From Alphaproteobacteria bacterium (GTDB lineage Bacteria > Pseudomonadota > Alphaproteobacteria > Bin95), in the NCBI GenBank assembly GCA_964291285.2, contig OZ219787.1:1184001-1248000 (forward strand): a stretch of 64,000 nt of DNA, given 5' to 3'. Position 1 is the first letter of the stretch. The number at the start of each line of letters is the position of its first letter. Positions 23,871 through 26,444 of this stretch are shown piece after piece. Made by a program: the position numbers and the translations under genes. The notes beneath the pieces were generated by a model. That model had not been told where the DNA came from, made no database searches, and was given only the letters and a program-made list of their open reading frames with translations.

Positions 23871-23900
23871 GGGGATTATAGGGCTAGCTAGCCAAAAGTG

Positions 23901-23929
23901 TTGACATTCGCCGGACCTTCTGTCAGATT
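23901..23929 (+). promoter_or_regulatory. Candidate sigma70 promoter of the IS1595 operon
   Basis: TTGACA (23901-23906), 17-nt spacer, CAGATT (23924-23929); GGAGG RBS before ATG 23952. Confidence 0.5.
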
Positions 23930-23951
23930 GGCAGCGTCGATGGAGGCAGAC

Positions 23952-24902
23952 ATGGCAAACTCTCCCGGAAAGTCATACCGCAAGGGCATCAGCCTGATTG
24001 AACTGGCCGAGATGTTCCCGGATGAGGACGCGGCCAAGCGGTGGTTCGAGGAACAGCGCTGGCCGGATGGAGTGCGGTGCGCGCACTGCCAGTCCGACCG
24101 GGTTTCGGCCTGCAAGGACGCGAAGCCCATGCCCTACCGCTGCAAGGACTGCCGGAAGCATTTCAGCGTCCGCACCAAGTCGGTCATGGCCGAGTCGCCC
24201 TTGCCGCTCCGCAAGTGGGCGTTCGCCATCTACCTTTGCGCCACGAACCTCAAGGGCGTGTCGAGCATGAAGCTCCACCGCGACCTGAAAATCGCGCAAT
24301 CGTCGGCATGGTTCGTCGCGCATCGCATCCGCGAAGCACTGGACGGCGATTACGGCCTGCTTGCCGGGCCGGTGGAGGTCGATGAGACCTACATGGGCGG
24401 CAAGCGCAAGAACATGCCGGCGCGCAAGCGCAAGGCGCTGCAAGAGGCCGGAGCGGGCCGGGGAACGGTCGGCAAGGCCATCGTCGCCGGGGCGAAGGAT
24501 CGGGAGACGGGCAAGGTATCGGCCCGCGTCATTGAGGATACGACCAAGCCGACGCTGCAAGGCTTCGTCCGCGACACCGCCGCGCCGGGCGCAACGCTCT
24601 ACACGGATGAGCATGGCAGCTACACCGGAATGCCGGAATACGCGCATGAAGCGGTCAATCATGGCGTCGGCGAGTATGTCCGGGAGATGGCGCATGTGAA
24701 CGGCATGGAATCTTTCTGGAGCATGTTGAAGCGGGGCTATCAGGGAACCTTCCACCACTTCTCCGCGAAGCACCTGCAACGCTATGTCAACGAGTTTGCG
24801 ACCCGGCAGGGTCTCCGCCCGCACGACACGGAAGCGATGATGGGCGAGATTGCCGCCCGGATGATCGGCCGCCGCCTCACCTATGCGCGGTTGACCTCGT
24901 GA
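23952..24902 (+). CDS. IS1595-family (ISXO2-like) DDE transposase
   Basis: Zn ribbon CAHC...CKDC, HTH (KGVSSMKLHRDL), VEVDETYMGG, LYTDE, HVNGMESFWSMLKR, YVNEF. Confidence 0.95.
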   Translation: MANSPGKSYRKGISLIELAEMFPDEDAAKRWFEEQRWPDGVRCAHCQSDRVSACKDAKPMPYRCKDCRKHFSVRTKSVMAESPLPLRKWAFAIYLCATNLKGVSSMKLHRDLKIAQSSAWFVAHRIREALDGDYGLLAGPVEVDETYMGGKRKNMPARKRKALQEAGAGRGTVGKAIVAGAKDRETGKVSARVIEDTTKPTLQGFVRDTAAPGATLYTDEHGSYTGMPEYAHEAVNHGVGEYVREMAHVNGMESFWSMLKRGYQGTFHHFSAKHLQRYVNEFATRQGLRPHDTEAMMGEIAARMIGRRLTYARLTS

Positions 24903-25843
24903 GCGCCGTTGTCACGGTCCCTCCGACCGACAAGACACCGGAGGAAATCGCTCAAACGCTCTTCCACGGGCAGAACCGCGCCCGGACGACCTTGTATCCC
25001 GGCGACTGCCGTGAAGTGCTGGCGGACATGGCGGATGAGAGCGTTCACCTTGTCCTCACGGACCCGCCCTATTTTCTCGACCGGCTGGATGACGGCTGGT
25101 GCCCGGATGACATCGAGCGGTCCAAGCGGAACGCCGACGTCGTGGGTGGCCTGCCTATCGGTATGCGCTTCGACCGGGAGCAAGCGAAGAACCTGCAAGC
25201 GTTTCTGGAGCCCGTCGCGGTCGAGCTTCTGCGCGTCCTGAAACCGGGCGGGTTCCTTCTGCTGTTCGCCGCGCCACGCCTCTACCACCGCGCCGCCGTT
25301 GCAATAGAGGACGCGGGCTTTGAGGTCCGGGACGCCTTCGCATGGCACTTCACGAAAAAGGCGCAGTTCAAGGCGTTCACGATGGACCATTTCGTCAAGC
25401 GTCGGGCCGACATGACGGCGGCACAGAAAGCCGACGCGCTTAAGTCGCTGGACGGGCGCCGGACCCCGCAGCTCCGCCCGCAGTTCGAGGCGATCCTATT
25501 CGCACAGAAGCCCCGAGAAGGGACTTTCGTCGATAACTGGCTGGCGCACGAGACCGGCCTTATCGACCCGCGCCACAGCCTGACGGCGCGCGTTCCTGAA
25601 ACCGTCATGACGGTCGAGAAGGAAGCGAAGGGACGCTTCAACGGGCATCTGACGCCGAAGCCGGTCAAGCTCTGCGAGCATCTCATCCGGCTGTTCTCTG
25701 CCGAGGGCCAGACCGTGCTTGACCCGTTTGTTGGCTCTGGCACGACATGCCTTGCCGCGCGTCGGACCAAGCGCCGAAGCATCGGCATCGACATCAACCC
25801 CGCCTACATCGACATCGCCCGCAAGCGGCTGGAGTCGCGGTGA
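24899..25843 (+). CDS. Beta-class amino (N6A/N4C) DNA methyltransferase
   Basis: GDCREVL, motif IV TDPPY before motif I VLDPFVGSGTT, HLTPKP; GTGA overlap with the transposase stop. Confidence 0.93.
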   Translation: MSAVVTVPPTDKTPEEIAQTLFHGQNRARTTLYPGDCREVLADMADESVHLVLTDPPYFLDRLDDGWCPDDIERSKRNADVVGGLPIGMRFDREQAKNLQAFLEPVAVELLRVLKPGGFLLLFAAPRLYHRAAVAIEDAGFEVRDAFAWHFTKKAQFKAFTMDHFVKRRADMTAAQKADALKSLDGRRTPQLRPQFEAILFAQKPREGTFVDNWLAHETGLIDPRHSLTARVPETVMTVEKEAKGRFNGHLTPKPVKLCEHLIRLFSAEGQTVLDPFVGSGTTCLAARRTKRRSIGIDINPAYIDIARKRLESR

Positions 25844-26427
25844 TGGCCGTCCCTCCGCTGGAGAAGCGCCACGGGCACCGGGGCGTTGCTCATCTGCGCG
25901 TCGCGGTCATGGAGGTCCTGTATGCCGCGAAGAAGGCCGGAGAGTGCCTTGGAGCGGCTGGCATAGGCCGTCGAGCGGGCATCTTCCGTGAACCCGGCTA
26001 TGCGGTGAAGCAGGGCAACGACTACATCGTGACGGGCGTCCTCAACTCCCTGGTCAAGGACCGGCTGCTGACGAAATGCACCCAGGCCAACAGGCGGCCG
26101 GGTTGGGAGCTTACCGACGCAGCGTTTCAGCGTCGGGATCAGGAAGTCACGGAAATGCCGGATTGGGGCGGCGACAAGCGCATCATCGACGCCTACCGGC
26201 TGAAGCAATGGGGATTCTGCCCCGGCTGCCTTGCGGTGTTGCCGGAGCGCCCCGACGTCGACCATATCCGGGCGAAGGCGCGAGGCGGTTCAGACGAGGC
26301 GGAGAACAAGCAATTGCTCTGCCCGAACTGCAACCGCCGGCGCGGTGCTAAGCCGTTCGCGCAATTCCTCGCCGAGCGGCTGGAGGACGGAAACGAGTGG
26401 ACCGATTACGAGCCAGAGGATGGCTAG
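25843..26427 (+). CDS. HNH endonuclease with a putative N-terminal winged-helix domain
   Basis: CPGC...DVDHI..KARGGSD...[15 protein letters not shown] coupling to the MTase; its stop codon lies inside the right IR. Confidence 0.85.
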
Positions 26428-26444
26428 CCAACCCTATAATCCCC

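Follow-up and report, generated by a model that had tools for sequence, protein, structure and literature searches.

Insertion sequences (ISs) that carry passenger genes are known as transporter ISs (tIS), a term coined for elements of the IS1595 type (Siguier, Gagnevin & Chandler 2009, cited through PMC11891212 and PMC9330008), and reviews list ISs and transposons among the carriers of restriction-modification (R-M) systems (PMC4176335, PMC4760077). R-M genes have also been found between imperfect inverted repeats (IRs), inserted with an 8-bp duplication; in one of these units, from Neisseria gonorrhoeae, a further gene bears a transposase motif (Furuta, Abe & Kobayashi 2010, PMC2853133). ISs of the IS200/IS605 group carry TnpB and IscB nucleases that bias their own inheritance (bioRxiv 10.1101/2023.03.14.532601). 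Here we describe an IS1595-family element in a 64,000-nucleotide stretch of DNA from an alphaproteobacterium (assembly GCA_964291285.2, contig OZ219787.1, positions 1,184,001 to 1,248,000; hereafter the window). Behind its transposase gene it carries genes for a DNA methyltransferase and for an HNH protein with a predicted winged-helix domain. The element is an autonomous, recently active IS; it is of a known kind, a variant with uncharacterised cargo, and we propose that its passenger genes are probably a mobile R-M or addiction module.

The genome to which the window belongs (five contigs, 6.1 Mb) contains three copies of the element on three contigs, 100% identical over 2574 bases, which is well outside what chance could produce. 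Each copy is framed by a different 8-bp duplication (TTCCGCAA, CAAGAATA and CTTTTTTG), and identical methylase and HNH genes lie between the IRs of all three. We then compared public contigs over positions 22000-28500 of the window. A 9884-base contig of the same organism, from run X1, joins position 23861 directly to position 26444, skipping 2582 bases (2574 + 8); its shorter side is 255 letters long. One copy of TTCCGCAA is left at this empty site, where the two parts of a permease gene that the element splits in the window are contiguous. Assembly of such a contig needs reads across the uninterrupted gene; hence, this organism also has DNA free of the insertion, which is therefore polymorphic. 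Since the empty site is bridged, the element moved recently. Run X1 is possibly the source sample of the assembly, and we take the contig as evidence of polymorphism rather than as independent confirmation of the assembly. A second empty-site joint, in run X2, has 21 letters on one side and was left uncounted. Thus, the mobile IS proposed in the first-pass annotation, made from the letters of the window alone, is borne out. A distant blastn search of a plasmid collection returned four records, none with at least 80% of the element and matching only short stretches of the methylase or transposase genes. The C2 copy of the element has as a neighbour, at a distance of 95 bases, one of 15 genes for a distant IS1595-type transposase (27% identical; G000 C2:1111368-1112189).

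The left and right IRs (IRL and IRR; Table 1) are identical at 22 of 24 positions, with TTCCGCAA on either side, and three co-directional open reading frames occupy the length of the element. The transposase ATG is preceded by GGAGG. The stop of the transposase gene and the GTG start of the methyltransferase gene share GTGA, the methyltransferase TGA and the HNH ATG overlap as TGATG, and the TAG stop of the HNH gene (26425-26427) lies within the right IR. Boundaries, overlaps and the placing of the last stop are all as first annotated. In a scan for promoters and terminators, we detected no terminator-like site between the three genes, which are therefore probably one operon read from the left end. 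The single terminator-like site in that scan lies inside the methyltransferase gene, fewer than in shuffled sequences. The promoter scan, which is uninformative for this high-GC organism, gave no inward match at the left end of the element. It gave one outward promoter-like match (10/12) in the IRL, on the minus strand at 23875-23904, that could drive the upstream flank. The IRL also holds a 12-bp palindrome. We rejected this palindrome as a conserved operator or methylation site, since it is missing in three relatives described below (L037, L035 and element B).

The transposase matches the Pfam profiles DDE_Tnp_IS1595 (E 3.8e-40) and Zn_ribbon_IS1595 (34 bits, cut-off 25.4), and scores 186.6 bits with the NCBIfam profile NF033547 (IS1595 family transposase), for which the cut-off is 75. 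With a DDE-type transposase bearing an N-terminal zinc ribbon, terminal IRs and 8-bp duplications, the element belongs to the IS1595 family, to which it had already been assigned at first pass; with passengers inside the IRs of every copy, it is a transporter IS. Its terminal bases may resemble those of the ISNwi1 subgroup of the family. The zinc-ribbon transposase, the short IRs, the 8-bp duplication and the position of the passengers inside the IRs are all features of the tIS described in the IS1595 family. By contrast, the passengers described for tIS are transcription regulators (IS1595), methyltransferases (IS1380) and resistance genes, and no pair of methylase and nuclease is named in the accessible text of those sources. 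We found no paper on methylase plus HNH cargo in IS1595 elements in a literature search that lay outside ISfinder, REBASE and subscription journals. The first-pass annotation had gone further and offered the element as an undescribed system. That claim is too strong, since the literature already contains IS1595 elements with passengers as well as R-M units that resemble transposons and have IRs and 8-bp duplications. The window element shares with the latter (PMC2853133) its IR-bounded candidate R-M genes and its 8-bp duplication; the same study also reports R-M insertions of another form, with a long target duplication, of the kind found at a related locus, L034, described below. However, as described in the accessible text, those units occur once each, the transposase-like gene was considered likely to be inactive and mobility was only deduced, whereas the window element is multi-copy, has an intact IS1595 transposase and has an observed empty site. 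The nucleases also differ, being Type IIP or IIG enzymes in the published units and a protein with a predicted winged helix and an HNH domain in the window element.

We next consider the two passenger proteins. The methyltransferase matches Pfam N6_N4_Mtase (E 3.2e-36) and the PADLOC model MTase_II (E 6.7e-49). DPPY (residues 55-58) and an FxGxG block (residues 277-283) are invariant in seven methylase homologues, and the order of these motifs, DPPY before FxGxG, is that of the beta class, in agreement with the initial identification. The HNH protein has a Pfam HNH domain at residues 126-169 and 51 homologue clusters at 50-88% identity. In an alignment of 29 sequences (the window protein and 28 of the 51 homologues found; mean column identity 66%), C126, C129 and H141 are invariant, and conservation reaches 90% or more at D140, N155, C160, C163 and N164. 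The ratio of nonsynonymous to synonymous substitution rates (dN/dS) against the window gene is 0.06-0.19 for the methylase (six pairs), 0.02-0.12 for the HNH gene (three pairs, synonymous sites being saturated in two further pairs) and 0.09-0.12 for the transposase; for the methylase and HNH genes, loci that lack a transposase are included. Thus, judged by its sequence, the pair has the components expected of a Type II R-M system: a methyltransferase with intact catalytic and S-adenosylmethionine motifs, and an adjacent gene for an endonuclease with intact active-site residues.

In Type II R-M systems with an HNH-type endonuclease, a methyltransferase gene is followed by the gene of a small beta-beta-alpha-Me (HNH) nuclease in one operon. 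The window element likewise has its methyltransferase gene directly before a small HNH nuclease gene. It differs from such systems in that searches of PADLOC and the PDB linked it by neither sequence nor profile to any characterised restriction enzyme, and in that its predicted DNA-reading part is a MarR-like winged helix without a Pfam family. In an AlphaFold model of the HNH protein (predicted local distance difference test 84.2, predicted template-modelling score 0.82), the N-terminus is a three-helix plus wing domain, with the HNH domain after it. Residues ~5-104 of the model align with MarR, ArsR and IclR winged helices (Z 8-9.4; root-mean-square deviation 1.3-3.6 A over 62-79 residues), and Foldseek gave weak MarR matches. 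From these matches and the alignment rows, which were produced with VIA-align, the protein is predicted to carry a winged-helix DNA-binding domain of its own, which the first-pass annotation had overlooked. Foldseek found no match in the PDB at E ≤ 0.001, the HNH half having been scarcely probed by structure searches, and for residues 1-110 the best match in the ESM Atlas, an unnamed cluster with a score of 0.75, gave no lead. When 1.84 billion representatives were searched with a profile, 57 proteins matched at E ≤ 1e-10, of which only 10 reached E ≤ 1e-30; full-length matches are so few that the architecture must be rare. The winged-helix part has many stand-alone relatives of ~100 aa, and 12 of the 15 that we scanned have no Pfam family. 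We also considered an HNH homing endonuclease, borne by an intron or intein, and set it aside: the gene lies inside the IS ends and behind a methylase, and Rfam gave two matches far below the gathering score (the best 20.7 bits against 70), with no intron RNA family near threshold.

If methylase and HNH protein act together, they should be found together elsewhere, a point on which the first-pass annotation had staked its proposal. The pair recurs in other phyla. HNH proteins closely related to that of the window (73-94% identical) are encoded at six genome loci (L033-L038) in records labelled Tepidiformaceae, Thalassobaculaceae, Paracoccaceae, Alphaproteobacteria and Gammaproteobacteria; among metagenome-assembled genome (MAG) records, close HNH relatives carry Chloroflexota-type, alphaproteobacterial and gammaproteobacterial labels. 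At all six loci, a homologue of the window methylase (61-94% identical) is directly upstream of the HNH gene, so that the refuting condition named at first pass, a pair that never co-occurs elsewhere, does not hold. An IS1595 transposase precedes the pair at three of them (58% identical at L035, 74-86% at L037 and 92% at L038). The pairs at L033, L034 and L036 lie instead between housekeeping genes (phosphofructokinase, ketopantoate reductase and ABC transporter genes). Resemblance to the right IR is partial at L036 and L033 and absent at L034, and we considered whether these three are simple IS remnants. The L034 pair is flanked by a 61-bp direct repeat (59/61; L034:3955-4015 and 5665-5725) in which the 5' end of the host gene downstream is repeated, which is the 'insertion with long target duplication' known for R-M genes (PMC2853133). 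At L033 (4057-4140), the methylase begins with the N-terminal motif of a fused methylase-HNH family described below and continues as a window-type methylase, which suggests recombination between cargo types. At L035, in a gammaproteobacterial MAG, an extra gene between methylase and HNH (~4970-5285) encodes a winged-helix domain only, which shares 48% identity with residues 14-104 of the HNH protein in the window.

Seven metagenome loci (L039-L045) were added to this set, of which L044 and L045 are weak matches and were set aside. At L039, an HNH protein 92% identical to that of the window stands behind another methylase (HTH_17 + N6_N4_Mtase, 27% identical) without a transposase. The remaining four (L040-L043) are deletion derivatives with a transposase 49-52% identical and a truncated methylase joined to an HNH tail. 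Wherever the HNH gene is intact, an intact methylase gene is beside it (six of six: the window, L033, L034, L035, L036 and L039). The methylase is also intact at L037, where an IS5-family transposase is inserted in the HNH gene, and at L038, where the HNH gene has two frame changes. A broken methylase beside an intact HNH gene was found at none of the loci examined, in what is a small sample. Four loci have the pair without any transposase, under strong purifying selection (dN/dS 0.02-0.19).

The first-pass annotation had suggested a search of the genome for sibling elements with varying cargo. Using tblastn followed by Pfam scans, we identified four further IS lineages of the IS1595 and IS1 families with methylase plus nuclease cargo (elements B-E; Table 1), in which methylases are fused to HNH or Mrr domains; these lineages had escaped the first-pass annotation. 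With the window element included, the genome has twelve copies of methylase-nuclease IS in five lineages. Element B copies are 2425 or 2491 bp long with 8-bp duplications, and their ends open with the same nine bases as those of the window element. The IS1595 transposase, to which that of the window is 51% identical, is convergent with a fused N6_N4_Mtase-HNH gene; between window and element B, the methylases are 27% identical and the HNH domains 38% identical over 93 residues. An 11-bp tandem repeat, present twice in two copies and eight times in the other two, lies between a Shine-Dalgarno sequence with ATG and the methylase-HNH frame. This ATG is one base out of frame in both repeat states and in all four copies, and a homologue 75% identical to the fusion (P0056) has the same MARKS... 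start with uninterrupted reading. The repeat may be a phase-variable, repeat-number switch, or an internal start may be used. Element C is ~3.15 kb long, has different IRs, keeps an intact 8-bp duplication at one copy and encodes a 430-aa fused methylase-HNH protein upstream of an IS1-family transposase. In element E, an Mrr_cat (PD-(D/E)XK) nuclease domain replaces HNH.

The siblings thus resemble single-chain Type IIG or IIC-like enzymes; they have the same beta-class methylase and HNH families as the window element and related terminal bases. The difference is that the two activities of the window element would reside on separate proteins, the nuclease having gained a predicted DNA-binding domain of its own. 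In the same tblastn search, 15 further places in the genome have a distant IS1595-type transposase (27% identical), and no methylase or HNH match adjoins any of them. Target duplications are swapped between two copies of element B (L005 on C3 and L008 on C2) and between two copies of element C (C3:~12.1 kb and C3:~785 kb), such that the left flank of one copy equals the right flank of another. Such swaps are a sign that IS copies have undergone homologous recombination with each other, and one of the cases involves two different contigs.

We extended the search to 401 genomes of the class, 38 of which, including the genome of the window, have a transposase match at E ≤ 1e-50. Among the best 29 transposase loci in other genomes, 7 have a methylase or HNH match within 1.5 kb and 22 have none (21 of 28 if we exclude L099, which comes from a genome flagged unpublished), suggesting that the cargo is dispensable for transposition. 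The cargo that does occur is varied. Two loci encode separate proteins: at L082 (transposase 61% identical) an N6_N4 methylase is followed by a 187-aa HNH protein, and at L086 (57%) a C5 cytosine methylase is followed by a 188-aa HNH protein, the two HNH proteins being 58% identical to each other. At L087 (59%), the cargo is a fused methylase-HNH protein 64% identical to that of element C; hence, one cargo lineage is found in both IS1595 and IS1 backbones. L091 and L097 have a methylase-like gene behind the transposase, and at L100 the match is just a convergent fragment where the locus ends. L101, in the same genus (G013 C1:12259-14223 region), has a truncated IS1595 transposase and then a 420-aa C5 methylase, whose N-terminal ~80 residues weakly resemble the window winged helix (30% over 71 residues). 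The L101 genome has this arrangement of truncated transposase and C5 methylase in two places. Transposase stop and methylase start overlap as ATGA at L082 and L091, comparable to GTGA in the window, and the left ends at L082, L086 and L087 open with the nine bases of the window IR, from which L091 differs at one. Conversely, of 28 loci scanned starting from the fused protein (L047-L074), 7 have a full-length fusion and 3 have an IS1595 transposase within 1.5 kb.

We conclude, with a probability of about 0.6, that the passenger genes are a mobile R-M or addiction module. In such a module, the methyltransferase, being translated first, would mark host DNA; the HNH protein would locate DNA by its winged-helix domain and cut DNA that is unmarked. 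The pair would restrict incoming DNA, and loss of the element or of the methylase would harm the cell, so that the IS is stabilised; the IS, for its part, would supply the pair with mobility within and between genomes. The same logic of methylase plus nuclease, split or fused, would apply in at least four other IS lineages of the genome. Five observations lead us to regard the pair as R-M-like: the methylase comes first and translation is coupled; the cargo persists without the transposase; decay breaks the nuclease with the methylase intact, and the reverse was never seen; one insertion has a long target duplication; and parts are swapped among siblings (HNH for Mrr, N6/N4 for C5, split for fused). 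The asymmetry in decay is expected of a toxin that is restrained by its methylase, and the swaps suggest that what is conserved is the combination of methylase plus nuclease and not one chemistry. Thus, the comparative evidence fits the R-M/addiction reading given at first pass, whose further suggestions of phage defence and of methylation control of transposition are conjectural and whose claim to novelty is too strong.

Several observations weigh against this conclusion. No PADLOC restriction-enzyme model matches the HNH protein, for which the only PADLOC match is PtuB (E 8.5e-4), and a sequence search of the PDB found only generic HNH domains (Cas9, maturase and McrA, at E 2.6e-4 and weaker). 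The two frame changes at L038 may be errors of MAG assembly. Because the cell has three copies, it could lose one at no cost, and stabilisation would extend only to the last copy. The pairing is also loose: an HNH protein 92% identical to that of the window stands with a methylase only 27% identical (L039), and HNH proteins 58% identical to each other stand with an N6/N4 methylase at L082 and a C5 methylase at L086. A strict cognate pair would not obviously tolerate such swaps. It is therefore conceivable that the passengers are not cognate at all, the methyltransferase being an orphan or anti-restriction enzyme that protects IS DNA and the HNH protein an independent winged-helix nuclease. The latter might depend on modification, like Type IV enzymes, might serve in nicking or homing, or might be a DNA-binding regulator that bears a nuclease tail. 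A winged-helix relative joined to a McrB-type AAA_5 ATPase (P0210) leaves room for a modification-dependent reader, and the related N-terminal stretch on the C5 methylase of L101, the many stand-alone relatives of the winged helix and the extra copy of this domain alone at L035 point the same way. However, the HNH gene always follows the methylase gene directly, its start overlapping the methylase stop, or in siblings is joined with it in one fused gene, and at none of the six loci with an intact HNH gene is an intact methylase missing. Moreover, a modification-dependent nuclease that is co-translated with a methylase would be self-destructive unless the two specificities avoid each other. On balance, we consider non-cognate passengers unlikely.

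Alternatively, the cargo might serve transposition, with the HNH protein cutting the second strand or the donor on behalf of the DDE transposase and the methylase timing or restricting transposition by marking the ends. Host Dam methylation regulates the transposition of some other ISs. The three genes overlap and would be made together, this transposase clade is repeatedly associated with methylase plus nuclease in several architectures, and the left IR contains a palindrome. Nevertheless, most related ISs are free of such cargo, which itself persists under purifying selection where no IS is present, so that a role in transposition itself is unlikely; the sharing of one fused cargo lineage between IS1-family and IS1595-family elements, and the absence of the palindrome from relatives, further reduce it to a very slim chance. 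Least credible of all is an inert or decaying hitch-hiker that is presently inactive, since the three frames of the window element are open and identical in three copies and catalytic residues are conserved at low dN/dS, even though deletion derivatives (L040-L043), an HNH gene interrupted by IS5 (L037) and an upstream start that is out of frame in every copy of element B would fit it.

Table 1. Positions of the window element, its flanking features and the sibling elements of the same genome (window positions unless a contig is given).
Feature	Position	Strand	Remarks
Whole IS1595-family transporter IS	23871..26444	+	2574 bp
Left terminal inverted repeat (IRL), 24 bp	23871..23894	+	identical among the three copies
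Right terminal inverted repeat (IRR), 24 bp	26421..26444	-	
Target-site duplication, left copy, 8 bp	23863..23870		TTCCGCAA
Target-site duplication, right copy, 8 bp	26445..26452		TTCCGCAA
Transposase, 316 aa	23952..24902	+	Zn ribbon + DDE_Tnp_IS1595
Beta-class DNA methyltransferase, 314 aa	24899..25843	+	
HNH nuclease protein with predicted winged helix, 194 aa	25843..26427	+	
ABC-transporter permease, 5' part (peptide/Opp-type operon)	23041..23870	+	Pfam BPD_transp_1 positions 2-102
Same permease, 3' part	26445..26711	+	Pfam BPD_transp_1 positions 103-182
Element B (L005-L008)	C2:1045193-1047683, C3:662489-664913, C3:1312203-1314693, C3:2119247-2121671		four copies
Element C (L076), IS1 family	G000 C3:12502-13686, C3:784956-786140, C3:1270328-1271512		three copies
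Element D	contig 5		IS1595 transposase, then 446-aa fused methylase-HNH
Element E (L078)	G000 C3:1124844-1126814		frameshifted IS1595 transposase, then 544-aa methylase-Mrr_cat fusion

In the window, the element cuts the permease gene cleanly, between profile positions 102 and 103 of BPD_transp_1. The neighbours of the split gene are an SBP_bac_5 gene upstream and, downstream, a second permease gene and the gene of a double ABC ATPase.

A more far-reaching possibility, which we regard as doubtful, is that the module is no chance passenger but an inheritance-biasing device that has been recruited repeatedly by the IS1595/IS1 clade. If so, it would mark each genome that bears the IS and cut unmarked DNA; the host would thereby become addicted to the IS, competing DNA would be kept out, and spread into naive chromosomes after transfer might be favoured. 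Coupled translation of cargo and transposase, and the repeat-controlled frame of element B, would then be part of the regulation of the device. It would be an epigenetic counterpart of the RNA-guided TnpB and IscB nucleases of IS200/IS605 elements, with which the window element shares the carriage of an accessory nuclease that is not the transposase (bioRxiv 10.1101/2023.03.14.532601). Those nucleases are described as RNA-guided and acting on the donor site, whereas the window element gave no guide RNA signal in Rfam; its discrimination of self from non-self would rest on methylation rather than on an RNA guide.

If the pair is an active R-M system, some of the smallest autonomous mobile elements would carry their own addiction or defence system and would have spread it across phyla. 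With twelve copies of five such elements, the methylome of this organism would be largely written by insertion sequences. Homologous IS copies also drive rearrangements, as in the swapped target duplications of elements B and C. These elements would offer a testable example of the long-held view of R-M systems as selfish mobile elements, and a set of compact, uncharacterised methylase-nuclease enzymes for specificity mapping, in split, HNH-fused, Mrr-fused and C5-linked forms.

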